Source of the DNA: an uncultured Candidatus Saccharibacteria bacterium
Lineage (GTDB): Bacteria; Patescibacteriota; Doudnabacteria; UBA920
Length of the DNA stretch: 39,785 bases
Reading direction: 5' to 3'
Assembly (NCBI GenBank): GCA_964589415.1
Contig: CAZPRQ010000003.1
Location: forward strand, 1 to 39,785
A program made the position numbers and the translations under genes. Positions 115 to 20,453 of the stretch are shown piece by piece (the stretch's first letter is position 1; each line of letters starts with the position of its first letter). The notes beneath the pieces are model-generated. The model ran no database searches. It was not told the origin of the DNA and saw only the letters and a program-made list of their open reading frames with translations.

Positions 115-1827
115 TTAAGCGTTCATAACCTTTAAGTGGTCTGCCTTAAGCTTACGGAGCGACTTATAACCGCCGTCTTCCTGCAAAATTCTGGACAGGT
201 GCAACCCGCCAATAAAATGCGGCTGAATGGCATAGTCGATATTTTTTTTATACAACAGCAAGGCTTCGGCTTCACTTTGGGCCACAAAAATCATTTTGGG
301 TCTAGTACGCTTATTGCCACTCCGGTTATTTACCGCCTCTATAAGCATGGCATTGTCATGCATGTCGGGAACGGTTGAAACTATTAACTTGGCGTTAGAA
401 AGCCCCACTTCATCCTGTATATAACTGTCGGAAATGTCTCCACAAATGACGTTTAGACCTTGCTTCTCCAGTTTCGCCGCAATTTCGGGATCGAAGTCAA
501 CTATTACCAATGTTTGCTTCTTTTTATCCAAAGTGTCAATTAAATGCGACCCCAGCCTGTTAGCTCCGATCAAAATAATATGATTTTTAAAAACCAAATT
601 GTTAAAACCCTTTTCCACCGAATGCTTCCTAAAATTAAACAACTGAATAATTGGCGCGAGCCAGTTATATAACCTGTCTGAATACAACACCATATAGGAA
701 GAGCCGGCAATGGTAACAATCCCAACTAAAGTAACCAACCCCAGCATAGAGTCCGACAAATGCCCGAGCCGGTTACCAATGGCCGCGACTACAAAACTAA
801 ACTCAGAAATTTGCGCAACGGTAACAGACGCGAAAAAAGATGTTCTTGGCTTATAGCCCATTAGCCCCATTATGACCATTACAATAAGCGGGTTGCCAAT
901 TAGGACAAAGAGGGACAGCAGTATAGCGGGTAATATCATGGAAACAATACCTGCAAAAACCAGCTTTGTGCCAAAAACTATAAAAAAGATAATTATAAAA
1001 AAGTCCCTCAGCGATTTTATTCGTGCAGATATTTCATAATGTACGTGGCTATTGGCCAAGGCAAGGCCGGCCAAAAAACCACCCGCTTCAATACTAAAGC
1101 CTACAAAGGGTGAAGAAATAAAGGCGGCAAAGCCTAATGCCCAGGCCACGGAAAACACCAGCAACATTTCGTCCGACTTGCCAAATCTATTCACAAAACT
1201 CGGAAATACCCGCTTGCTAAGCCACAAAAGCAAAAGCAAAATTATTAACACTTTAGCTGCCAGGGTAACCAGGTACTGCCAACCGTCCAAAGAATAGAAA
1301 ACATCGCGGTGGGAACCCGAACCTCCTGCCATAAATAATAAAATACCCATAGCCACAAAATCTTGTACTAGCAAAATACCAATGCAGATTCTGCCGTATA
1401 GGCTTTGAAGGTCTTTTTTCTCAGCAAGAAGCTTTATAACAATTATAGTGGAGGAGAATGTTAGTGCAGTGGAAACGTAAAGCGAAACCAAACTCGAAAA
1501 ACCCAAGCCCAAGCAAATAAAGTAACCTATTGCAAAAGTAAATATTATTTGCCCAAGCCCAGTGTAAAGAGCCACTTTGCCCAAATCTTTTATTCGCTTA
1601 ACATCTAATTCAAGTCCGACCATAAACAAAAGCAGGGCAATGCCAATTTGCCCCAGCGCGTCCAAGGCGCTATGCTCAGTGCCGTGCATATAACCCAACG
1701 ACCCAACAACAAGTCCGGTAAGGATATACGCGATTATTGAAGGCTGCTTTAACAAACTAACCGCGGCGGCAATTATTCCCGCAAGCACCAAAATACCAGT
1801 TATATCGTAAAATAATTTAAATTCCAT
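115..1827 (-). CDS. CPA2-family monovalent cation:proton antiporter with C-terminal RCK/TrkA-N domain (KefB/KefC-like)
   Basis: 570-aa ORF. About 12 hydrophobic helices typical of the Na+/H+ exchanger fold are followed by a Rossmann-like segment, NHIILIGANRLGSHLIDTL. Confidence 0.8.
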   Translation of the reverse strand: MEFKLFYDITGILVLAGIIAAAVSLLKQPSIIAYILTGLVVGSLGYMHGTEHSALDALGQIGIALLLFMVGLELDVKRIKDLGKVALYTGLGQIIFTFAIGYFICLGLGFSSLVSLYVSTALTFSSTIIVIKLLAEKKDLQSLYGRICIGILLVQDFVAMGILLFMAGGSGSHRDVFYSLDGWQYLVTLAAKVLIILLLLLWLSKRVFPSFVNRFGKSDEMLLVFSVAWALGFAAFISSPFVGFSIEAGGFLAGLALANSHVHYEISARIKSLRDFFIIIFFIVFGTKLVFAGIVSMILPAILLSLFVLIGNPLIVMVIMGLMGYKPRTSFFASVTVAQISEFSFVVAAIGNRLGHLSDSMLGLVTLVGIVTIAGSSYMVLYSDRLYNWLAPIIQLFNFRKHSVEKGFNNLVFKNHIILIGANRLGSHLIDTLDKKKQTLVIVDFDPEIAAKLEKQGLNVICGDISDSYIQDEVGLSNAKLIVSTVPDMHDNAMLIEAVNNRSGNKRTRPKMIFVAQSEAEALLLYKKNIDYAIQPHFIGGLHLSRILQEDGGYKSLRKLKADHLKVMNA

Positions 1828-2098: not shown

Positions 2099-2671
2099 AT
2101 GGATTTAAATACCATATTTTTTATTGGCCCTCAAGGTTCTGGAAAAGGCACGCAAGCAAAATTGCTCGCAAAGCGCCTGGACTTTTACTATTGGGAAATG
2201 GGCGGAATACTGCGAGATTTGAAAAACGAAACAAGCCCCTTAGCGGAGCAGGTCACAAAACTAATAAACGAAGGGGTTCTTTTGCCGGACGAAATCTTGC
2301 TCGAGGTGGTAAAATCCAAGCTTTCCGACATAAAACCCGAGCAAGGCATAATATTTGACGGAATACCCCGACGCATAGGACAAGCTGAATTTTTATTCAA
2401 TTTTTTAAAGGCTCAAGGCAGGTCTGAGTTTACGACCTTGTTTGTTAACCTGCCAAAAGAAGAAAGCATTAAGCGCATTATGCTTCGGGCAGAAAAAGAA
2501 AATCGCGCGGACGACACCCCGGAAAAAATTGAATTCCGCCTAAAACAATACGAAAAGGACACCTTGCCGGTTGTAGATTACTTAAAGGAGCACACGCGCT
2601 TTATGGAAATAAGCGGTCTTCCTAAAATAGAACAAGTAACCGAAGACATTAATGCCGCCCTGGAGTTATAG
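2099..2671 (+). CDS. adk: Adenylate kinase, short form without a zinc lid
   Basis: P-loop IFFIGPQGSGKGTQAKLLAKRL, NMP-binding GGILRD, IFDGIPRR and RADD motifs. 190 aa. Confidence 0.85.
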   Translation: MDLNTIFFIGPQGSGKGTQAKLLAKRLDFYYWEMGGILRDLKNETSPLAEQVTKLINEGVLLPDEILLEVVKSKLSDIKPEQGIIFDGIPRRIGQAEFLFNFLKAQGRSEFTTLFVNLPKEESIKRIMLRAEKENRADDTPEKIEFRLKQYEKDTLPVVDYLKEHTRFMEISGLPKIEQVTEDINAALEL

Positions 2672-2674
2672 GTT

Positions 2675-3280
2675 ATGCAAAAAAACGTCCGACCCATAAA
2701 TATTATTTTGCTCGGCGACCCGGCGGCAGGGAAAGCCACCCAGGCAAACTTATTGCTTAAGCGTTTTCCGCTTTATGACCTGGATATGGGTAAGGAATTG
2801 AGGGTATTGAAAAGCAAGGACGCGAGAGTAAAAAAACTTCTGGAAGGCACTTATGACAAGGGCAATTTAACCCAAACTGATCTGGTCCGCTCCATTCATA
2901 AACAACAAATTTTTAAAACTCCAAAAAAACTCGGCATTTTGTTTGACGGCACGCCAAAAATGGTGGGCGAAGCCAGGTTAGTACAAAAATGGCTCAAACA
3001 AACAGGGCGCGACCGGGCACTGCTTATTTACCTTTCAATTCCCATGGCGGAAACGTTAAAGCGCATGGAGAAAAGAGTGGAATACTTTAAAGGAAAATTC
3101 AGCAAACGAGCGGACGATAACCAACAAGCATTAAAAAACCGAGTAAAATATTACCGAAAAAACATATCCGCCGTACTGCGATATTTTAAAAAAATATACC
3201 CAAGTAAAAATATTTCCGGACTTGGCAATGTTGGAGATGTTAATAAGCGGCTTCTGAAATTTATTAAAGCCGTGAATTAA
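2675..3280 (+). CDS. Divergent adenylate kinase-like nucleoside monophosphate kinase, a tandem paralog
   Basis: IILLGDPAAGKATQANLL P-loop variant (GKAT instead of GKGT), LFDGTPK and RADDN motifs. The start lies 3 nt after the adk stop, consistent with translational coupling. Confidence 0.65.
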   Translation: MQKNVRPINIILLGDPAAGKATQANLLLKRFPLYDLDMGKELRVLKSKDARVKKLLEGTYDKGNLTQTDLVRSIHKQQIFKTPKKLGILFDGTPKMVGEARLVQKWLKQTGRDRALLIYLSIPMAETLKRMEKRVEYFKGKFSKRADDNQQALKNRVKYYRKNISAVLRYFKKIYPSKNISGLGNVGDVNKRLLKFIKAVN

Positions 3281-5238: not shown

Positions 5239-7002
5239 TTATAGCTTATTTGCTATTTCATTTGTTAGTTTTGACACTAAATCGTTAATGCTCATTTGCC
5301 CCAAATCTTGGCCTTCTCGAGTGCGCACAGCAACCATTTTGGCATCTACTTCTTTTTGGCCAATTATAATTTGGTAGGGGACTTTACTTTGGGAGGCTTC
5401 TCGAATTTTTTTGCCAATAGATTCATTACGCTCGTCTATTTCTAAACGTAAGTCGGGCAAAACAGCCTCCAACTGCTCCCGCACTTCTTTAGCATAACCA
5501 TTTTGGTTTTCCGAAATGGGCAAAATGGCAACTTGGACAGGGGAAAGCCACAAGGGGAAAGCCCCTGCATAATGTTCTATAAGTATGCCTATAAATCTTT
5601 CTAACGATCCGTAAATAACCCTATGAATTGCAATGGGAGTTTTACGGCTACCGTCCTCTGACACATATTCCAACCCGAACCTTCTTGGCTGCTGAAAATC
5701 GAGCTGCACTGTTCCCATTTGCCAGTCCCGTCCAAGCGCGTCTTTCATTAGAATATCCACCTTTGGTCCATAAAAAGCGCCATCTCCTTCCTCTATAAAA
5801 TAATCTTTCCCGCTTTCGGCTAAAATCTTTTTTAACGTAGTTTCGGCGCCATTCCAGGTTTCAATATCGCCCATAAAGTCTTTTGGCCTGGTGCCAAGCC
5901 GAAAACGGTATTGCATGCCAAAAATAGAATAAAACAACTCCACAATTTTAAATACTTCCATATATTCCGATTCCACCATTTCCTCGGCTACATAAATATG
6001 AGCGTCATCCTGGCGAAATTCTCGAACGCGGAATAACCCGTTTAAAGTTCCGGCCAGTTCATAGCGGTGCAAATGGTCGGTGTCGCCAAGCCTTAAGGGC
6101 AGCTCTTTATACGAACGCAGCTTGCTACCAAATACCACATGGGCATTTGGGCAATTCATGGCCTTAACTCCATATTCTTCATTTTCTCCCATGTTTGCTA
6201 CAAACATATTTTCCCAATAATGTTCGTAGTGGCCGGAAGTTACGTACAACTCTTTTTTATTTAGCAGAGGGGAAACAATTTCCTGATAACCGCGTTTTTT
6301 ATGCTCTTTGCGCCAAAAATTCACCAATTCATTGTACAAAATAACTCCCTTTGGCAGCCAGTAAGGCATGCCTGGAGAAGTGGGGTGGAACATAAACAGT
6401 TCAAGCTTTTGTCCCAAAACTTTATGATCCCGTTTTTCAGCCTCTTCCAGCATTTTTAAATGGGCTTTTAAATTCTCGCTGCTTTCAAATGCCAAACCGT
6501 ACACGCGGGTCAGCATGGGATTTTTACTGTCGCCACGCCAATATGCGCCGGCAAGCTTGTGGAGCTTAAAGCACTCCGGATCTATCTCCTTCATGCTCTC
6601 CACATGACCTCCGCGGCACAAGTCTACAAATTTTCCGGATTTATAAAAAGAAATAGGTTCGCCCTTCTTAACCAATTCTTCAATAATTTCAAGTTTAAAC
6701 GGGTTTCCTTCCCAAGTTTTTCTGGCCTCGTCCGGCGTGACTTCAATTTTTTCGAACTTATCCCAAGTATGTAGCAATTTTTTCATTTGCTTCTCAATTT
6801 TAGGCAAATCGCTTTCGGTAATGGGATTTTCGCTACTTTCGAAGTCATAATAAAAACCGTCTTCCACCGGAGGACCAATGGTAATTTTTGCTTTGGGATA
6901 AAACTCTAAAAGCGCTGCCGCAAACAAATGCGCGAGCGAATGCCTAATGGCGTGGAGATGTTCGTTATTGTGTTCCATAATTGTTATATTCTGTTGTGTC
7001 AT
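5239..7002 (-). CDS. thrS: Threonyl-tRNA synthetase lacking the N-terminal TGS domain
   Basis: The protein begins almost directly at the editing-domain HxxxH motif (HAIRHSLAHL). Class II core motifs and a C-terminal anticodon-binding domain are present. The annotated ATG (7000-7002) lies inside a repeat unit, and an alternative start is at M9. Confidence 0.9.
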   Translation of the reverse strand: MTQQNITIMEHNNEHLHAIRHSLAHLFAAALLEFYPKAKITIGPPVEDGFYYDFESSENPITESDLPKIEKQMKKLLHTWDKFEKIEVTPDEARKTWEGNPFKLEIIEELVKKGEPISFYKSGKFVDLCRGGHVESMKEIDPECFKLHKLAGAYWRGDSKNPMLTRVYGLAFESSENLKAHLKMLEEAEKRDHKVLGQKLELFMFHPTSPGMPYWLPKGVILYNELVNFWRKEHKKRGYQEIVSPLLNKKELYVTSGHYEHYWENMFVANMGENEEYGVKAMNCPNAHVVFGSKLRSYKELPLRLGDTDHLHRYELAGTLNGLFRVREFRQDDAHIYVAEEMVESEYMEVFKIVELFYSIFGMQYRFRLGTRPKDFMGDIETWNGAETTLKKILAESGKDYFIEEGDGAFYGPKVDILMKDALGRDWQMGTVQLDFQQPRRFGLEYVSEDGSRKTPIAIHRVIYGSLERFIGILIEHYAGAFPLWLSPVQVAILPISENQNGYAKEVREQLEAVLPDLRLEIDERNESIGKKIREASQSKVPYQIIIGQKEVDAKMVAVRTREGQDLGQMSINDLVSKLTNEIANKL

Positions 7003-7043: not shown

Positions 7044-7319
7044 CTACAAAATAATTTGGCTATATAAATCCTTCCATTCAGGATTTAATTTGTTAATCAA
7101 TATTATCTTCTTATTTCTAGAACCACCCTTAATTTGCTTTTCTCTTAAAATTGCGCTTTCAATACTATCGAAGACTTCGTAATACACCAATTTCGTCACA
7201 TTATATTTACTAGTAAAACCTTTAACTAAGTGATTTTTATGTTCAAAAACTCTTCGGATTAAATTATTTGTTACCCCTGTGTAAAGAACAGAATTGGTAA
7301 TGCTGGTCATTATATACAA
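7044..7319 (-). CDS. GIY-YIG nuclease-domain minigene (UPF0213-like)
   Basis: YIMTS....LYTGVTNNLIRRVFEHK...YYEVF....AILREKQIKGGSR matches the GIY-YIG core. It has a TTG start and encodes 91 aa. Confidence 0.8.
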   Translation of the reverse strand: MYIMTSITNSVLYTGVTNNLIRRVFEHKNHLVKGFTSKYNVTKLVYYEVFDSIESAILREKQIKGGSRNKKIILINKLNPEWKDLYSQIIL

Positions 7320-8293: not shown

Positions 8294-8399
8294 AAGTGGT
8301 TGTGTTTATTGAAGTTTTTTAAACATGCGCCCGACTGACACGCTGCTGCAGTGGGGAATCCGGCTGCTTAGCTGGAAATTCAAAACTGAAGGTGGAAAA

Positions 8400-8735
8400 A
8401 TGTTCCGATTAGTACTTTTTTTGATGACGTCCCTGTTACTGTTGTTGTATGCCGAAGCCGGCATAACGACCTTTGTAATTGAGACTAAAGCAAAGGGCAG
8501 GCACGGGGTTAGCATTGCCCAGGCCTACGTGCCCGGGGTGGAGGGACGCGAGATCCGCATCTCAGCCCACAGCAGTGAGGTATGCGGCACCAAAGCCGTA
8601 GTGCTGGTACCCAAAAAAGGGCAGCACGAGCTCGTAAACGGAGACTCTAAGGTAATTCCTTCCAAGTGTGAAGGGAAAACTTATAGAGTCACGGTGGATG
8701 CCAACCTGCTTTTGACCATTGCTGAGGAAAAGTAG
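8400..8735 (+). CDS. Small secreted hypothetical protein with a signal peptide and 2 Cys
   Basis: I prefer the internal ATG at 8400, which is preceded by GAAGGTGG, over the ORF-track start at 8325. The N-terminus MFRLVLFLMTSLLLLLYAEA is signal-peptide-like. I recognise no family. Confidence 0.5.
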   Translation: MFRLVLFLMTSLLLLLYAEAGITTFVIETKAKGRHGVSIAQAYVPGVEGREIRISAHSSEVCGTKAVVLVPKKGQHELVNGDSKVIPSKCEGKTYRVTVDANLLLTIAEEK

Positions 8736-8742
8736 GCACAAG

Positions 8743-9183
8743 ATGAGACTGATGATAACCTTAGGCTTGGCCGCCGCGGTTGCTCTGGCCGGATACTACC
8801 AAAAAACTGCCAGCTGGGAGCTTTCCCAGTATGACAGGAAAATGGGATCAATGGGCTTTGAAGCCAGAAGCAGGAGAGATGCGCTTCCGGGGACGGCCAT
8901 AATCCAGAGGGTGAACGGTGACATCTTGGCCCCAAATAAGGTCATCGTACACGCATGCCTTCCTGAACAGACCGCCTGCTATTGGGCAGAGGTAATGGAA
9001 ATGGCGGAGGGAAACCTGATGGGAGGCGGGGATTGGTACAACAAAAACAATAAAAAAATCAATCCACCAAAAGGCGGGGATCGACTTATCCAAGCCATTT
9101 CAACCTCCTGCGCCAAAGAATGGCCGGAATGGGCCAAGAGCGAGGTAAGGCCATATTTGGCCTATCTGGGAATTAACATCTGA
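8743..9183 (+). CDS. Small secreted or membrane-anchored hypothetical protein with 3 Cys
   Basis: The ATG at 8743 follows GAGGAAAAG. The N-terminus is MRLMITLGLAAAVALAG. I recognise no family. The ORF-track TTG start at 8719 would overlap the upstream gene. Confidence 0.5.
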   Translation: MRLMITLGLAAAVALAGYYQKTASWELSQYDRKMGSMGFEARSRRDALPGTAIIQRVNGDILAPNKVIVHACLPEQTACYWAEVMEMAEGNLMGGGDWYNKNNKKINPPKGGDRLIQAISTSCAKEWPEWAKSEVRPYLAYLGINI

Positions 9184-15395: not shown

Positions 15396-15518
15396 ATCTC
15401 CCCGCTCCGGGAATGAGAATGTTTAATGAAGGGGGGGGTTGACTTATTTAAACATTTATGTCACTATAATCGTATATGAAATTTAAGGCATTCCAAAACT
15501 CAGTATTTAATTGGTCCT

Positions 15519-15608
15519 GGACTTTGTAACCGCAAAGTCCTAACTTTGGTTTGTCTTTAAAAGATTTAACTCGAACAAACACCTTGGACTTTGCAGAGGT
15601 GTTTTTTT
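15519..15608 (+). promoter_or_regulatory. Structured leader, copy 1: P1 hairpin, P2 hairpin and a terminator whose loop is complementary to the P1 3' arm
   Basis: GGACTTTG (15519-15526) pairs with CAAAGTCC (15533-15540). GTTTGTC pairs with GAACAAAC (15549-15580). The terminator is ACACCT/GAGGTGT plus T7 (15579-15608), with loop GGACTTTGC (15586-15594). Confidence 0.45.
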
Positions 15609-15634: not shown

Positions 15635-16327
15635 ATGAAAACTGTAGGTATAATTGGTGGTCTGGGACCTCAAACAACCTCTGAATTTTATTTAGAGCTG
15701 ATTTTCTCGTGCAAGCAATTAAATAAAATTAGCTATCCGCCTGTACTCATTAATAGCATTCCATTACCATTTAGTATCGAAAAGGATGCAATAGCAGATG
15801 GCCTTGGCGAAGAAAGGTGTTTGCCGTATTTGTTGAAAGTAGCAAAAAATTTAGAAAAAGCAGGCGCTGACTTTTTAGTCTTGCCCTGCAATTCTTTACA
15901 TGTGTTTATAAAGGATATTCGGCAAGCCGTTAAAATACCTGTCTTAAGTATTTTGGAAGAAACTTCCAAATTTCTTAAAAAACAAAACATACACAAAGTT
16001 GGAATTATTGCGACCCCAATAACGGTAAAAAATAGGCTGTATGAGAAACTTCTGAAAGCAAGCAGCATTATCCCGATTATTCCAGATAGTTTACAACAAG
16101 CTAAAATCGGTAAGCTCATACTTAACCTGGTCTCTAACCGCTATGATAATAAAGACAGGGTTATGTTGCTAAAAGTTATACAAGATTTTAGAAAAAAGAA
16201 AGTTAAAAACATTATATTAGCCTGCACGGATTTGCAATTGTTAATTCCCAAGCAGGATAACTTCAAAATATACGATACAATGAAAATCTTGCTTGATGCT
16301 ACTGTGAAAAAGGTAATTGGAATATGA
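15635..16327 (+). CDS. Aspartate/glutamate racemase family protein (aspartate racemase-like)
   Basis: N-terminal VGIIGGLGPQTTSEFY. The two catalytic-Cys contexts are LPCNSLH and LACTDL. 230 aa. Confidence 0.75.
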   Translation: MKTVGIIGGLGPQTTSEFYLELIFSCKQLNKISYPPVLINSIPLPFSIEKDAIADGLGEERCLPYLLKVAKNLEKAGADFLVLPCNSLHVFIKDIRQAVKIPVLSILEETSKFLKKQNIHKVGIIATPITVKNRLYEKLLKASSIIPIIPDSLQQAKIGKLILNLVSNRYDNKDRVMLLKVIQDFRKKKVKNIILACTDLQLLIPKQDNFKIYDTMKILLDATVKKVIGI

Positions 16328-16366
16328 AATATACATCACCATACAAATTAAACAACTCAACCTGGT

Positions 16367-16452
16367 GGGCTTTGCATTCTCGCAAAGTCCTAGGTTAATG
16401 TTGTCTTATTTTTTAAGAACAAGCACCTTCTGGATTTTGCAGAAGGTGTTTT
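16367..16452 (+). promoter_or_regulatory. Structured leader, copy 2, with the same architecture as 15519-15608
   Basis: GGGCTTTGC (16367-16375) pairs with GCAAAGTCC (16382-16390). TTGTCTTA pairs with TAAGAACAA. The terminator is CACCTTCT (16424-16431) with AGAAGGTG (16441-16448) plus TTTT, with loop GGATTTTGC (16432-16440). Confidence 0.45.
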
Positions 16453-16552
16453 ATTTTGTTGATTAATAATTTTTAAAAAGTTATTAGCCATCAACACGAA
16501 ACATCTTGAAGATGTTAGTGTTGAACATTCCAAATCAAACAGGAGGAATTAC

Positions 16553-19021
16553 ATGCGTAAACTTCAAGAAGTCCTTAAAGCAGAAGAAACTATGGTGGGA
16601 GGAAAGGCACTTAGACTAGCCCAGATACAAGCTCTCGGTTTGCCTGTCAAACAGGCACTGGTACTGGATTCCTCTGAGGTGGCCAGTATTGTAGCTTGTG
16701 GACAATGTCCTAACCTTGTCGCGGAAGAAGCCTCACAAACTTTGACTATAAAATCTCATGGAATCGCTGTTCGCAGTTCCGCTGCGGGCGAGGATGGGTT
16801 ACTGTCTTGGGCGGGGCAATTCAAGAGCAAGCTATTTGTTACCCTAAATACTCTAGAAGCAGCAGTTCTAGAGTGCGCAATGGCTATACAAGGCAGCTCC
16901 GTTAGCTCTTATGCTCAATTGCATAATGCTTCTGTCGTCAACCTTGCACTAATCCTGCAAGATATGGTGAAAGCTAAAGTTGCTGGAGTCCTTTTTACCC
17001 ACGACCCCATAACCCTTAACGACCAAGTTATGGTTATTGAGGTGGTTGCGGGAGTAGCTGAAGGCCTAGTATCAGGCTTAATTGAACCTAGACGATACTA
17101 TGTTGATGCAATTACGAGCCAGGTCATCAAAGAGGAGGGGGCGGCGTCTCCTATTCTAAACCAGGGTCAGATAATAGAACTAGTTCAGGTGGGATATACG
17201 CTTCGAACGGCTTTCAACTGTGGTCAGGACGTTGAGTGGGCAATTGAAGAGGAAAGCAATTTGCTTTTTATTAACCAATCGCGAAATATTACTACTGATG
17301 GCAAAATTTCAGCAACACAGATTGTAATCTCCTCAGTAGATAATGCTTTAGCTTTGGAGGGAAGCAGATTGACCCAACTTGGTTGCAATCTTCTTCCGGA
17401 TGTTTTAAGTGACCAAAACATTAGCGAAATTCTTACCCGCTATCCGCACCAAATGAGTTTAGGACTCTTCACTTACTGTTTTGCTCATGGAGAAGGAGCT
17501 ATTCGTACAGCTCGTAACCAAATGGGGTATGACATTGGGGAAGAGTTAGTCACCGGCTTCTTTAGCCTTGTAGGAGGCCAACCAAGGTGTAGCATCATTC
17601 ATGACGCGTTCACCTATCGTATTCAAGGAATACCCTTGGACGATTACTGCCAGCTCGTGAATCACTATCTGGAACGCATACAGGAGGATTCATCCCTTGG
17701 AAACTATCCAGAAGTACAGCTGTATGAACAAAACCCCAGTCAAGAGTTTTTAGCGGAGATTTTTGGAGCGGATAAAGCTGAGGGGTACTTTGCAGCATAC
17801 CAAAAATTCTTCGCTGGAATTCAACAGCTGGAGGATACTCTTTACGCACAATGCCGCGCCTCACTCGTTCAATGGGATGAACAGTTACAAGAAGTAGCTC
17901 CGACCAGAGGAATGGAACTGCAAATTCTGGCAAGTAATTTTTTCACCGTGTGCGATTTACTTCGCACTGAGGCTTGCCCCTTGTTTGTGAAAGTTGCGCG
18001 ATTGGGATTCTTTGCCTTTACCAGACTTAGAAATCTTTTAACCGAGATGTTCGGGGATAAAGGAGAGAGCTGCCTCAATACGCTAACTGGTGGAGCATCC
18101 TTGGAAGACAACCCCAACCTCCAGTTTAACGTTCATCTTCATGAGCTTAAACAAGGTACGCGTAGCTTTGACAATATTGTTGCTCAATATGGTCACCTCG
18201 GAAGCCATGAACTCGAGCTTTCTACCCCTAGATACCAGGACCAACCAAACCTGATACATGAAATGGCGGGAAAGCTTGATGATACATTCGAACATCATCT
18301 TGTGGAAAGCCAGGATGAAGCTAAAAAGCTAGAGGTTGAGTTACTGAAGGCTGCAGGTTCAAATACCGACCAACTAAGACGCGAAATAAAGATGGCTAGG
18401 ACTTATCTTCCACTAAGAGAAGTGGTTAAGTTCCACTTTCTGAAAGGGTATGCCATCTTACGTCAACTAGCCACCTCAATAGAAAGCACCTTAGGGTGGT
18501 CAGAGGGACTAATCTTTCACCTTAACCCAGAGGAGGTATTTAAGATAGCCAATAACTATGCTCATTTACAACTTTTGGCAACTCAAAGGAAAGCGCAACG
18601 AGAATTAGAAAGACTCATTGAAGTTCCGGCAGTGGTATATGCGAATAAGCTTGAAGTAATTGGACAATGTGTAAACATCTCGTCCAATACACTGAAAGGA
18701 ATTGGTGTGACTAATGCTGTAACTGAGGGGGATGTCGTGGTAGTCACGGAGCTAAACGATACAGCTTCGCTTTCCCACCTGCACGCTGGCAGTATACTCG
18801 TAACCACAACAACAGACCCCGCTTGGTCCCCAGTACTTGCAATTATAGGGGCACAGGGCGGTCTAATAACGGAGGTCGGCGGATTGCTCGCTCACGGAGC
18901 AATATACGCAAGAGAAATGAACATTGCTGCTGTACTCAACGTACCTCACGCTACTAAAATCCTTAAAACAGGAATGAAGGTGCGGGTGAATGGTCCATTA
19001 GGCATTGTTGAAGTTTTGTAA
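16553..19021 (+). CDS. PEP-utilising dikinase-like phosphotransferase with a PPDK_N ATP-grasp domain, an unassigned central region and a swivel phospho-His domain (RPH/PpsA-like architecture)
   Basis: N-terminal motifs GGKALRL, AVRSSAAGEDG, LFTHDPIT and QDVEWAIEE. The C-terminal motif is TTTTDPAWSPVLAIIGAQGGLITEVGGLLAHGAIYAREMNIAAV. No PEP/pyruvate TIM-barrel domain is present. A strong SD, AGGAGG, lies 7 nt upstream. Confidence 0.75.
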   Translation: MRKLQEVLKAEETMVGGKALRLAQIQALGLPVKQALVLDSSEVASIVACGQCPNLVAEEASQTLTIKSHGIAVRSSAAGEDGLLSWAGQFKSKLFVTLNTLEAAVLECAMAIQGSSVSSYAQLHNASVVNLALILQDMVKAKVAGVLFTHDPITLNDQVMVIEVVAGVAEGLVSGLIEPRRYYVDAITSQVIKEEGAASPILNQGQIIELVQVGYTLRTAFNCGQDVEWAIEEESNLLFINQSRNITTDGKISATQIVISSVDNALALEGSRLTQLGCNLLPDVLSDQNISEILTRYPHQMSLGLFTYCFAHGEGAIRTARNQMGYDIGEELVTGFFSLVGGQPRCSIIHDAFTYRIQGIPLDDYCQLVNHYLERIQEDSSLGNYPEVQLYEQNPSQEFLAEIFGADKAEGYFAAYQKFFAGIQQLEDTLYAQCRASLVQWDEQLQEVAPTRGMELQILASNFFTVCDLLRTEACPLFVKVARLGFFAFTRLRNLLTEMFGDKGESCLNTLTGGASLEDNPNLQFNVHLHELKQGTRSFDNIVAQYGHLGSHELELSTPRYQDQPNLIHEMAGKLDDTFEHHLVESQDEAKKLEVELLKAAGSNTDQLRREIKMARTYLPLREVVKFHFLKGYAILRQLATSIESTLGWSEGLIFHLNPEEVFKIANNYAHLQLLATQRKAQRELERLIEVPAVVYANKLEVIGQCVNISSNTLKGIGVTNAVTEGDVVVVTELNDTASLSHLHAGSILVTTTTDPAWSPVLAIIGAQGGLITEVGGLLAHGAIYAREMNIAAVLNVPHATKILKTGMKVRVNGPLGIVEVL

Positions 19022-19027
19022 CAACTG

Positions 19028-19061
19028 GGGCGGAAACAAATCACCGTTTCTGCCCTTTCTT
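19028..19061 (+). terminator. Intrinsic terminator
   Basis: GGGCGGAAAC (19028-19037) pairs with GTTTCTGCCC (19046-19055, one G-U pair), followed by TTTCTTATT. Confidence 0.55.
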
Positions 19062-19083
19062 ATTATTTTGCTATACTAAATTT

Positions 19084-19614
19084 ATGAAAAAGTTAATTGT
19101 GTTCGTTTGTAATGGTAATATTCATCGTTCAGTTATTGCAGCTGAATTTTTTTCAAATATTGTAAATAAACTAGGATTAAAAAGTAAATATAAAATAGAC
19201 TCGTACGGACTCCAAGGAACAATGGGCACGAGACTACCGTTGCATAAAAAATTAATAGAATATTCCAAAGAATGGAAAGCAGCTGCTCCCGCTTTGCGTA
19301 AATTTAATATTGATATTAGTAACCATTCTTTTCAAAAAATTACCCCTGCGGTTGTAAAGAAAGCTGCGGTTATTATTGCTATGGATAAAAAAACCCATTC
19401 TACTGCTGTAAATTCCCTAATTAAACAATTTCCTAAATCAAATGGTAAAATACATGGCTTTACAGAACTAACTAGTAGCCATAAAGGTATTAAAGACCCT
19501 GCGGGGAGTAATAATAAAAAATTAAATTATTCAATTATCAAAAATATTAATTTGACTTTACTTAAAAATTCAAGGGCTATCTTGTCCTGGGCAAACCATG
19601 ACAAATATGAATGA
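19084..19614 (+). CDS. Low-molecular-weight phosphotyrosine phosphatase / ArsC-type CX5R phosphatase family protein
   Basis: Active-site loop VFVCNGNIHRS (C-X5-R-S) and a later KDPAG (DP general acid). The gene is very AT-rich. Confidence 0.7.
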   Translation: MKKLIVFVCNGNIHRSVIAAEFFSNIVNKLGLKSKYKIDSYGLQGTMGTRLPLHKKLIEYSKEWKAAAPALRKFNIDISNHSFQKITPAVVKKAAVIIAMDKKTHSTAVNSLIKQFPKSNGKIHGFTELTSSHKGIKDPAGSNNKKLNYSIIKNINLTLLKNSRAILSWANHDKYE

Positions 19615-19779
19615 TTTCCCATACCAACTATCCACTCCACTTTTTTTATATTTTATAACGTAACCTTACACTGCACCTCGAGTATTTTAAAGAGGAAAAA
19701 GTGAAACCATTAACAAAAAACGCCAAGCCTCGACCGGCGAGGTGTTTTATGATATCCTAAACTGCCCATAAAATCTCGA

Positions 19780-19980
19780 GTGGAAGGAGGAACAGCTATA
19801 GAACATAAATGCGACCATATGCCGGATAACGCTAGAATCTTCTCCCAAGAGGAAGACGGACAGTCGTTTCTGGAACTCAGCGAACAAGGACTTGACACCA
19901 CAGGCACCACGCTCGTCGAGACAACAAACAAAATGCAGACGCCCATCTGGCATTGTCCCTACTGCGGAAAACCTGTGTAA
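19780..19980 (+). CDS. Doubtful small ORF with a C-terminal CPYCGKPV
   Basis: GTG-initiated 66-codon ORF in a GC-rich patch, with no convincing SD. The only support is the strong plus-strand terminator just downstream. Confidence 0.25.
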   Translation: MEGGTAIEHKCDHMPDNARIFSQEEDGQSFLELSEQGLDTTGTTLVETTNKMQTPIWHCPYCGKPV

Positions 19981-20004
19981 ACCGCCCTCTCATTCACAAA
20001 TAGC

Positions 20005-20045
20005 GCGCCCCAACCTTCCAAGGTATGGGGCGCTTTTCTTTTTTC
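20005..20045 (+). terminator. Strong intrinsic terminator
   Basis: GCGCCCCAACCTT pairs with AAGGTATGGGGCGC in a roughly 13-bp stem (20005-20033), followed by TTTTCTTTTTT. Confidence 0.65.
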
Positions 20046-20087
20046 CATTTAAACACTAAAAAAACGTGAGTACAATAACCCTACCAT

Positions 20088-20291
20088 ATGTCATCCCGGG
20101 CGAGCCTGCCTCGTCGGCAGACAGGTGCATCCGACTTGTCCGCCGAAGCTTTTGTATATTAAACATAGTTTTGATGAAGCTTGAGGCGAAGGCGGAGACC
20201 CCAAGATCCAGCATCTAAGCCAACTTCTGGATCCCGGATATTTTTACAGCCCTAAAAATTCCCTGCCTACCGCAGGCAGGCGGGATGACAG
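20088..20291. repeat. About 205-bp palindromic (MITE-like) element with TGTCATCCCG termini
   Basis: The left end is ATGTCATCCCGGGCGAGCCTGCCTCGTCGGCAG. The reverse complement of the right end is CTGTCATCCCGCCTGCCTGCGGTAGGCAG. Internal hairpins include GAAGCTT/AAGCTT and GATCCAG/CTGGATC. Confidence 0.45.
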
Positions 20292-20331
20292 AGGTCTTTG
20301 GATTCACGTTAAAAAACCGAATACAAAACGC

Positions 20332-20360
20332 TTGCCAAAAAGTTAGCTTTTTGTTATAAT
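20332..20360 (+). promoter_or_regulatory. Consensus-like promoter of rplY
   Basis: TTGCCA (20332-20337), a 17-nt spacer, then TATAAT (20355-20360). It is nearly the same sequence as the rpsB promoter. Confidence 0.6.
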
Positions 20361-20453
20361 ATCCGAGATATTAAAATTTTGTGAGTACCAAATATACCCT
20401 GCTATATTAGATTAGCAGTGTAAAAAGGGATGGGCAAAATTCATAAGGAAAGT

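Follow-up and report, generated by a model that had tools for sequence, protein, structure and literature searches.

Serial tryptophan attenuators precede a racemase gene and an RPH-like dikinase gene in a Patescibacteria genome

Several described systems come close to parts of the locus reported here. In Escherichia coli, trpL is a short leader open reading frame (ORF) with two Trp codons on region 1 of an RNA that forms exclusive 1:2, 2:3 and 3:4 helices, ending in a terminator with its U-run. The rifampicin phosphotransferase RPH of Listeria monocytogenes (PDB 5HV1/5FBS) carries an ATP-grasp domain, a helical substrate domain and a C-terminal His-swivel domain in that order, and we know of no phosphatase partner and no Trp-dependent regulation for it. 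For the HpeHI dikinase and HpeD phosphatase of Rhodococcus, which act on 4-hydroxyacetophenone and acetovanillone, as for phenylphosphate synthase, phosphorylation by a PpsA/RPH-type dikinase activates or protects a hydroxyl and a dedicated phosphatase acts later. Here we analyse a 39,785-nt stretch (the window) of a Patescibacteria (Doudnabacteria-like) genome, in which an Asp/Glu-family racemase (15635-16327), an RPH-like dikinase (16553-19021) and a low-molecular-weight (LMW) phosphatase (19084-19614) are encoded by three co-directional ORFs, present in the ORF listing exactly where a first-pass annotation of the sequence had placed them. The racemase and dikinase genes each follow a Trp attenuator of the trpL type, and we consider it probable that the region is one arm of a Trp-limitation regulon, comprising the attenuated racemase and dikinase with a phosphatase partner and serving Trp acquisition, salvage or homeostasis. 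The parts are of known kinds: an RPH/PpsA-type dikinase, an LMW phosphatase, an Asp/Glu racemase, trpL-type attenuators and, in relatives, T-boxes. What appears to be new, provisionally since our literature check is incomplete, is the combination of a discrete dikinase clade with a conserved phosphatase, of dikinase and racemase genes as targets of tRNA-Trp sensing, and of attenuation in Patescibacteria.

The first-pass annotation had noticed that each of the first two genes is preceded by a copy of one RNA element. The duplication is real, as two homologous leaders are found, but the nature of the element had been missed: it is a classical ribosome-mediated Trp attenuator of the E. coli trpL type, present twice in series. 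On the forward strand, leader 1 is followed by the racemase gene, leader 2 and the dikinase gene. Leader ORF 1 (MKFKAFQNSVFNWSWTL and a stop codon; 15476-15529) has 17 codons, with in-frame Trp codons at 15512-15514 and 15518-15520, and runs into attenuator 1 (15519-15608), which consists of region 1 (GGACUUUGU, motif at 15519-15527), region 2 (GCAAAGUCC, 15532-15540), region 3 (GGACUUUGC, 15586-15594) and, by folding, a terminator stem with U-run at 15577-15608. Leader ORF 2 (MKYTSPYKLNNSTWWALHSRKVLG and a stop codon; 16324-16398), the ATG of which overlaps the racemase stop codon, has tandem Trp codons at 16363-16368, and attenuator 2 (16367-16457) is made up of region 1 (GGGCUUUGC, motif at 16367-16375), region 2 (again GCAAAGUCC, 16382-16390), region 3 (GGAUUUUGC, 16432-16440) and a folded terminator at 16421-16451 that a terminator scan also finds, with its U-run extending to 16457. 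In both attenuators a single 9-mer or its complement thus occurs in three copies, as regions 1, 2 and 3, and region 3 (GGAYUUUGC) lies inside the terminator hairpin.

The Trp codons of both leaders, clustered as W-S-W and W-W, sit in frame on region 1, the 5' arm of the first hairpin, and the leader stop codons are placed such that a ribosome that does not stall would cover region 2. WW or WxW occurs in just 2.5% of 445 random window ORFs of 10-35 codons. At full length both leaders fold as the 1:2 helix plus the terminator (leader 2 at -42.4 kcal/mol, z -6.6), and when region 1 is excluded, which mimics a stalled ribosome, the minimum-energy fold becomes the 2:3 antiterminator despite the presence of the full terminator sequence. 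Both attenuators accordingly have mutually exclusive anti-antiterminator, antiterminator and terminator helices and a U-run. This pairing of homologous leaders supports the earlier proposal that racemase and dikinase are co-regulated by one kind of RNA element. Upstream, a -10-like TATAAT box (15465-15470, forward strand) was read from the sequence, a consensus promoter scan not having picked it up, and a TTGACT (15439-15444) lies 20 nt 5' of it, an atypical spacing. Since the ATG of leader 1 lies only 6 nt past the TATAAT box, the transcript probably begins at or very near that ATG. Unlike E. coli trpL, then, the window attenuators would control a racemase and a dikinase rather than trp biosynthetic genes, of which the window contains none; they are serial in one transcription unit, and the first leader probably resides on a leaderless mRNA. 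We know of no described case of leader-peptide attenuation in Patescibacteria, as far as our incomplete literature check extends.

Both leaders are kept in the closest relative, L001, a Doudnabacteria metagenome-assembled genome (MAG) whose racemase, dikinase and phosphatase are 83%, 60% and 58% identical to those of the window, and the racemase leader is also kept in L152. The homologs of leader 1 read ..NIWSWGLQ before the stop codon in L001 and ..FSWRWALQ.. in L152; those of leader 2 read ..FGWRALLL.. (L001), ..SWWAKL.. (L009), ..KSWWGIE.. (L016), ..ITWWSLKG.. (L067), ..IGWWSPL.. (L073) and ..TAWWSLKR.. (L157). The five attenuator copies are too alike for informative covariation statistics. 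At the gathering score, Rfam reports only tRNAs and rRNAs in the window and 11 relative loci; a permissive Rfam scan of the leaders returned PyrR, L10 and rli60 at chance level, and these were rejected for the leader-peptide reading. ANTAR, PRD-RAT and ligand-riboswitch elements were likewise rejected, the hairpin loops not being conserved whereas the in-frame Trp codons are. A search of the window for the T-box core found none.

The layout suggests how the locus may respond to Trp. Transcription would begin just 5' of the 17-codon leader ORF and then meet the two attenuators in sequence. When charged tRNA-Trp is scarce, a ribosome would stall at the W-S-W or W-W codons and cover region 1, so that region 2 would pair with region 3 in the terminator and RNA polymerase would read through, entering the racemase gene first and then, past the second attenuator, the dikinase gene. 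With ample Trp, the ribosome would reach the leader stop codon and cover region 2, allowing the 3:4 terminator to form. Racemase, and then dikinase, would in this manner be induced by Trp limitation.

Relatives of the dikinase point to the same amino acid by other means. We compared 56 non-identical loci of the dikinase clade from genome and metagenome collections, 44 of them with enough upstream DNA. At about 24 of these 44 a T-box core (GGUGGNACCRCG) and a terminator lie 100-310 nt 5' of the dikinase on the same strand, and the Rfam T-box model RF00230 matched all six loci tested (E 1e-17 to 3e-5), below its gathering threshold. Of 26 T-box leaders, 20 have UGG at the specifier, in the context GAAAN-UGG-A or, in a class with a short Stem I, hairpin-(G/A)U-UGG-G, and the variable base of the UGGN bulge is U in 15 leaders and C in 11, with nothing else occurring. 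The tRNA-Trp gene that adjoins the L067 dikinase has G73, and the U/C of the bulge fits both this base and the Trp-specific wobble, since a U:G wobble was reported as a peculiarity of Trp T-boxes (TBDB paper, PMC7778990). Specifier and bulge in the relatives are consistent with one and the same tRNA, tRNA-Trp. These leaders share with Trp T-boxes a UGG specifier and UGG(U/C) bulge as well as a terminator; unlike typical T-boxes, many have a very short Stem I, and the regulated gene encodes neither an aminoacyl-tRNA synthetase, nor a biosynthetic enzyme, nor a transporter. Leader peptides with Trp codons occur at nine dikinase loci (the window, L001, L009, L011, L016, L064, L067, L073 and L157). 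The neighbours add to this picture: Trp_repressor accounts for 7 of 42 genes directly upstream, and four more lie two to four ORFs away on either side; tRNA-synt_1b is found in 10 loci, three of them verified as trpS (223-262 bits against a cut-off of 177); and tRNA-Trp neighbours the dikinase in one locus, L067. Dikinase orthologs thus appear to be under Trp-specific control by independent mechanisms.

Further upstream motifs were observed at these loci. Palindromes resembling the E. coli trp operator (GTACTAGTAC, GCACTAGTGC and TACTAGCATGCTAGTA), read by eye, overlap promoters in L012, L014, L016, L064, L152, L153 and L154; they often lie beside Trp_repressor-family genes, none is present in the promoter region of the window, and they suggest a possible third layer of Trp sensing. 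A box, GTTCTTTGA(C/A)AA, lies 20-60 nt 5' of the dikinase start, between terminator and ribosome-binding site, at T-box and leader-peptide loci alike (for example L009, L011, L016, L023, L064, L067, L151 and L157), and is absent from the window; it might sequester the ribosome-binding site or bind a protein. Other genes near the dikinase encode CM_2 (often fused to a methyltransferase), PDT, AstE_AspA, Biopterin_H aromatic amino-acid hydroxylase, group II decarboxylases and EamA transporters. The fusions of CM_2 with an S-adenosylmethionine-dependent methyltransferase near the dikinase operon (L006, 6149-7336; L018, 5896-7191; L151, 12697-13842) could, we presume, be enzymes leading from chorismate to prephenate to carboxy-S-adenosylmethionine (CmoA-like).

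What the regulated dikinase does can be approached from its architecture. The 822-aa protein comprises an ATP-grasp domain (about aa 1-250; PPDK_N, E 2e-29), a conserved helical central domain that is predicted to bind the substrate (about aa 255-700) and a swivel domain (about aa 705-822; PEP-utilizers, E 3e-16) with the predicted phospho-histidine His781 (nt 18893-18895) in the context GGLLAHGAIYARE at aa 776-788. No PEP (phosphoenolpyruvate)/pyruvate TIM-barrel family matches the protein in Pfam at E <= 0.01, and the chain ends with the swivel domain, so that the N-terminal ATP-grasp and C-terminal swivel histidine without a barrel are as the first-pass annotation had described them. All four Pfam families with which it had proposed to search the three proteins (PF01177, PF01326, PF00391 and PF01451) match. 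The roughly 450 central residues that it had called unassigned are so in the local Pfam copy, but PF27448 'Rph_4th' is assigned to the dikinase, and to many of its relatives, in a newer, precomputed Pfam. The AlphaFold model (pLDDT, the predicted local distance difference test, 92) finds its best Foldseek match in Listeria RPH 5HV1 along the whole chain (E 1e-33), and the best PDB match by sequence is RPH 5FBS (E 6e-39), at an identity to RPH of 18-20%; by sequence alone, aa 249-516 fail to align with RPH. Pfam domains, sequence match and fold match together support an RPH-like 'substrate, water dikinase' architecture in three domains. H781, R622 and K626 are invariant across 53 homologs, and the latter two align to RPH R666 and K670, which we take to be catalytic residues; the enzyme is predicted to be an RPH-like dikinase with its catalytic apparatus complete. 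No part of the family is better conserved than the central domain, and its many invariant Arg and aromatic residues (53 sequences) suggest an anionic, probably aromatic ligand. If the enzyme works like RPH, the ATP-grasp domain would pass the beta-phosphate of ATP to His781 with release of AMP and Pi, and the swivel domain, aided by Arg622 and Lys626, would carry the phosphate to a hydroxyl or enol of a ligand in the central domain, probably an anionic aromatic compound. The ATP domain of HpeI (9GOJ) is also among the structural matches; unlike HpeHI/HpeD, the window system has a single-chain dikinase and no conserved carboxylase or other intermediate enzyme, is regulated by amino-acid charging and belongs to a Patescibacteria context.

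Resemblance to RPH does not make the dikinase a member of that family. It belongs to the His-swivel dikinase superfamily (PF00391 and PF01326 above their cut-offs, H781 invariant), and scores 196.5 bits against a cut-off of 999 for the RPH equivalog NF041857, 129.2 against 1700 for NF000283, and 134 against 740 for the PpsA model TIGR01418, which goes with the lack of a PEP/pyruvate barrel. About 70 homologs are 36-61% identical to it. In an exhaustive search the scores of about 20 representative clusters reach 467 bits or more and then drop sharply to at most 285 (1,080 representatives of the entire superfamily are found at E <= 1e-30), and the dikinase thus appears to form a discrete Patescibacteria clade that falls outside the RPH and PpsA family cut-offs. 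Distant full-length homologs of about 29% identity in L026-L051 (Methylomirabilota and Proteobacteria) are flanked by one or two Peptidase_U32 genes and NMT1-like genes, hinting at another dikinase function; as this neighbourhood differs, it was left out of the functional inference. Split or shortened dikinases were also observed (P0072-P0082; L085, L096 and L104), as proteins of about 580 aa without an ATP-grasp domain or as two adjacent ORFs, and are either assembly frameshifts or true two-component dikinases.

It might be argued that the gene simply is what databases call it, a rifamycin phosphotransferase or PEP synthase that came in with a horizontally acquired mosaic and happens to sit beside an unrelated housekeeping racemase and phosphatase. 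The top NCBIfam matches are indeed the PRK06241 'phosphoenolpyruvate synthase' models and RIF_Ptrans_rph, database names include 'pyruvate, water dikinase', and the racemase and LMW phosphatase genes are AT-rich outliers. However, none of these matches comes near its cut-off (215 against 972 and 196 against 999 bits), the protein lacks a PEP/pyruvate-binding domain, close relatives of all three genes are confined to Patescibacteria, and neither resistance nor PEP synthesis would account for the conserved phosphatase partner or the Trp regulation. The first-pass annotation had made the alignment of the central domain with RPH its test for an ordinary resistance gene: the domain does align, but at the level of the fold only and with the family score just given. 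The Trp-dependent regulation, together with that score, argues against rifamycin resistance, and we regard this explanation as highly improbable.

Base composition tells against a mosaic as well. The window has 41.7% GC, and its 29 other genes average 42.8% (sd 3.7). Against these, the racemase gene (34.3%, z -2.3) and, as the first-pass annotation had it, the phosphatase gene (30.7%, z -3.3; 22% GC at third codon positions, GC3) are AT-rich outliers, but the dikinase gene is ordinary (45.3%, z +0.7; GC3 40%, under the mean), and the 45-58% given for it was an overstatement. L001 repeats the pattern for racemase, dikinase and phosphatase (35.8, 48.8 and 32.8%), and close homologs of all three proteins are numerous, those that are named being from Patescibacteria. 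The shared pattern and the Patescibacteria-type close homologs together indicate an old pattern and no recent foreign mosaicism, and recent horizontal transfer was rejected on these grounds and on the ordinary GC content of the dikinase gene. The trio, which lies among Patescibacteria housekeeping genes (ThrRS, DnaE, RodA, L25, PrmC, RF1, S2, Tsf and others), consists of conserved Patescibacteria genes rather than the accessory, compositionally mosaic set it had been taken for, and appears to be neither a resistance gene nor an accessory mosaic. PADLOC models of anti-phage defence matched neither the trio nor orf119. The true GC-rich outliers of the window lie at 8325-9183, where ORFs of 136 and 154 aa overlap; neither has a Pfam match (51-52% GC, GC3 60-61%), and a foreign origin is more plausible for them than for the dikinase.

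A related scenario is that the dikinase, much as RPH does with rifampicin, phosphorylates and thereby inactivates an antimetabolite or a compound that blocks Trp charging, for instance a toxic analogue of Trp or an inhibitor of TrpRS, and is induced by the build-up of uncharged tRNA-Trp that such a compound causes. Control by uncharged tRNA is the logic by which inhibitor-resistant copies of aminoacyl-tRNA synthetases are regulated, trpS is frequently adjacent to the dikinase, and the nearest structure is that of an antibiotic-inactivating enzyme. However, a co-conserved and once fused phosphatase would reverse the inactivation, the family is vertically conserved at 37-61% identity over many Patescibacteria classes in the manner of a core gene, and the RPH equivalog cut-offs are far out of reach. 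We hold this scenario to be improbable.

The phosphatase is the most constant companion of the dikinase. The window protein (176 aa; 19084-19614, forward strand) belongs to the LMW phosphatases, with LMWPc (PF01451) above its cut-off (E 1e-16), the P-loop C9-X5-R15-S16 within CNGNIHRS (aa 9-16), as the first-pass annotation had recognised, and the general-acid motif D138-P139. It resembles LMW protein tyrosine/arginine phosphatases such as Campylobacter 2GI4 and Bacillus subtilis YwlE in its CX5R(S) P-loop and DP motif, and unlike them has His in place of the second P-loop Cys, which leaves a single Cys. A role as ArsC-type, thioredoxin-coupled arsenate reductase was rejected because of this single Cys and a score of 26.6 bits against a cut-off of 215. 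About 100 homologs in Patescibacteria are 50-64% identical. The gene directly 3' of the dikinase encodes a phosphatase in 39 of 49 loci, of the His_Phos_1 family in 34 and of the LMWPc family in five; homologs of the window phosphatase follow the dikinase in L001, L015, L067, L150 and L157, both families are present in L005 and L064, and the 976-aa protein P0057 is a natural fusion of dikinase and LMWPc, followed by a His_Phos_1 gene. An arbitrarily chosen homolog of the LMW phosphatase, P0315 on a 1.04-Mb contig, turned out to lie directly 3' of a dikinase with a ..TAWWSLKR.. leader. Adjacency, fusion and the P0315 locus bear out the functional link between dikinase and phosphatase that had been proposed, and the phosphatase appears to be a Patescibacteria-specific LMW subfamily dedicated to the dikinase neighbourhood. 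No degraded His_Phos_1 gene was found when the window and L001 were searched for one.

How the phosphatase is expressed bears on what it may be for. Between dikinase and phosphatase in the window, a GC-rich hairpin (19027-19056) with a T-rich tail is followed by a -10-like TATACT (19071-19076), 7 nt 5' of the phosphatase ATG, which has no Shine-Dalgarno sequence; 19027-19076 is probably a terminator, perhaps a leaky one, together with a separate leaderless phosphatase start. A hairpin, U-tract and -10-like box are found at this place in most relatives too, and the intergenic gap is at most 17 nt in six loci (L011, L067, L076, L082, L083 and L095). One could accordingly imagine dikinase and phosphatase as antagonists on a single target, with Trp starvation inducing the dikinase, the dikinase generating a phosphorylated signal and the phosphatase, perhaps expressed constitutively, resetting it. 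The target might be a metabolite, a protein or an RNA, for example an alarmone-like phospho-compound or a translation component such as TrpRS or tRNA-Trp, with Trp charging serving as a nutrient gauge in reduced genomes. The hairpin and possible leaderless start in most loci speak for such an arrangement, as do the use of two unrelated phosphatase families that co-occur in L005 and L064 and the lack of any consistent intermediate enzyme among the neighbours. Moreover, N-P or protein phosphatases are known in both families (SixA, YwlE), and fusions of a kinase with His_Phos_1 that act on a signal metabolite exist (PFK-2/FBPase-2). However, coupling within 17 nt in six loci and one fusion would create a constitutive futile cycle unless the activities are regulated, the central domain resembles an RPH-type small-molecule pocket, and the accessory neighbours are enzymes of aromatic amino acids (CM_2, PDT, AstE_AspA, Biopterin_H and a decarboxylase). 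The intergenic terminators thus favour antagonism, while the fusion, the tight loci and the aromatic neighbours favour a pathway, and we consider antagonism on one target rather unlikely.

The racemase seems to belong to the Trp response in its own right. It is a PLP (pyridoxal phosphate)-independent amino-acid racemase of the Asp/Glu family (230 aa; 15635-16327, forward strand), matching PF01177 (E 5e-33) and, above the cut-off of 93, TIGR00035 'amino acid racemase' (157 bits), with the predicted catalytic Cys85 and Cys197 in the contexts PCNSLH (aa 84-89) and ACTDL (aa 196-200); the assignment made at first pass, with both catalytic Cys contexts, therefore holds. Its nearest solved structure is the Pyrococcus horikoshii aspartate racemase 1JFL, which it matches over the full length (E 4e-35) and with which it shares the two catalytic Cys. 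More than 120 homologs in Patescibacteria are 61-87% identical to it, making it a highly conserved gene of the candidate phyla radiation (CPR). The first-pass annotation had taken the three genes for a module. The dikinase-phosphatase pair does recur in relatives, but among the dikinase loci the racemase adjoins the dikinase in the window and L001 only; elsewhere it is solitary or follows trpS and a gene of the TrpR family. Trp leaders lie 5' of the racemase in L001, L152, L153 and L154. That of L152 is of the window type (W-R-W) with no dikinase nearby, and L153 (a Patescibacteria MAG) and L154 (the racemase of which is named by NCBI from a Nomurabacteria genome) both have the order trpS, TrpR-family gene, operator-like palindrome, WW leader with terminator, small W-rich ORF, second mini-leader (MAWSSDDDWWF or MWW, then a stop codon) and racemase. 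Altogether a Trp leader, or trpS with a TrpR-family gene, precedes the racemase in five of seven contexts examined. Unlike 1JFL, the window racemase and those at three relatives' loci thus stand behind Trp leaders or behind trpS and a TrpR-family gene, and the racemase would be an independently Trp-controlled member of the regulon. The W-rich ORFs of L153 (4594-4818) and L154 (4669-4845), which lie between the first attenuator and the mini-leader, are Trp/Gly-rich, 58-74 aa long, and end in ..RWGGWGGGP or ..SWGWGGVVAP at the stop codon; they could be additional leaders that sense Trp, or else genuine W-rich proteins.

Taken together, these features are consistent with a Trp-limitation arm in which the dikinase would phosphorylate its ligand and the phosphatase (LMW in the window, His_Phos_1 in most relatives) would remove the phosphate, either once the product has been converted further or to reset the system. 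The racemase would be an independently Trp-regulated partner that supplies the L-form of an amino acid, conversion of D-Trp to L-Trp being the simplest guess, and the net role would be acquisition, salvage or homeostasis of Trp. Computation shows the gene set, the catalytic residues, the anatomy of the attenuators, the Trp-specific control in relatives and the conservation of dikinase with phosphatase; the dikinase substrate, the sequence of the reactions and their direction, and the co-transcription of the phosphatase are inferred. Patescibacteria are generally regarded as auxotrophic, host-dependent and without most amino-acid biosynthesis.

Several observations weigh against reading the region as a Trp-limitation arm. 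The T-box matches in relatives all stay under the Rfam gathering score (39-88 against 93 bits), six of the 26 T-boxes lack the UGG patterns searched for, and about 12 of the 44 relatives have no recognisable Trp signal 5' of the dikinase. No Trp-biosynthetic enzyme is consistently adjacent in the relatives' neighbourhoods, IGPS, PALP, PDT and CM_2 being sporadic, and the neighbour survey found no intermediate enzyme consistently linked to the dikinase. No Trp leader was seen 5' of the racemase in a Curtissbacteria genome and in L156 (Taylorbacteria by NCBI name), and the racemase could instead serve the supply of D-amino acids to the cell wall. Finally, the strong hairpin and U-tract before the phosphatase in the window and most relatives mean that the phosphatase may escape Trp control, and such uncoupled expression would fit an antagonistic reset better than a linear pathway.

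A bolder form of the Trp-limitation reading is that these genes represent a conserved Patescibacteria pathway for Trp acquisition or charging with a new class of substrate, in which dikinase and phosphatase form the core, the racemase is an accessory, and T-box, leader peptide and TrpR are interchangeable sensors. The substrate could be an indole or another aromatic precursor or, most boldly, an intermediate carried on tRNA, as in the routes of SepRS or PSTK. We put this forward tentatively, as a possibility. If true, it would show how minimal symbionts cope with the scarcest amino acid. The CPR makes up a very large share of bacterial diversity, and to our knowledge little has been learned of how its members sense and respond to amino-acid shortage. 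In our analysis an uncharacterised enzyme pair and a highly conserved racemase emerge as a recurrent target of Trp-sensing devices across many CPR lineages, which provides a physiological handle on an RPH-like clade now annotated 'PEP synthase' or 'hypothetical', adds apparent new cases of classical ribosome-mediated attenuation in Patescibacteria, and frames a testable hypothesis of a new phosphorylation-dependent step in Trp economy. It also cautions against calling RPH-like genes in metagenomes antibiotic-resistance genes by default.

Other features of the window and its relatives deserve mention. The 816 nt between the phosphatase and L25 genes (19615-20430) have no ORF of at least 100 aa and no Rfam match, a GC content of 45-48% and several hairpins; within them, at 19780-19980, a 66-aa ORF ends in the zinc-ribbon-like CPYCGKPV, and the region could hold a small protein gene or an unannotated RNA. 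A small ORF on the reverse strand (7045-7310), judged by eye to be GIY-YIG/UPF0213-like (..KQIKGGSRNKK..), lies just 5' of the ThrRS gene (5239-7002, reverse strand), which has no T-box core 5' of it in the window. Tandem paralogs of the adenylate kinase family (190 and 201 aa) are encoded at 2099-3280. Among the relatives, the Kaiserbacteria MAG of locus L015 carries a group I intron (370-731, reverse strand; 70.5 bits in Rfam) within its 16S rRNA gene.

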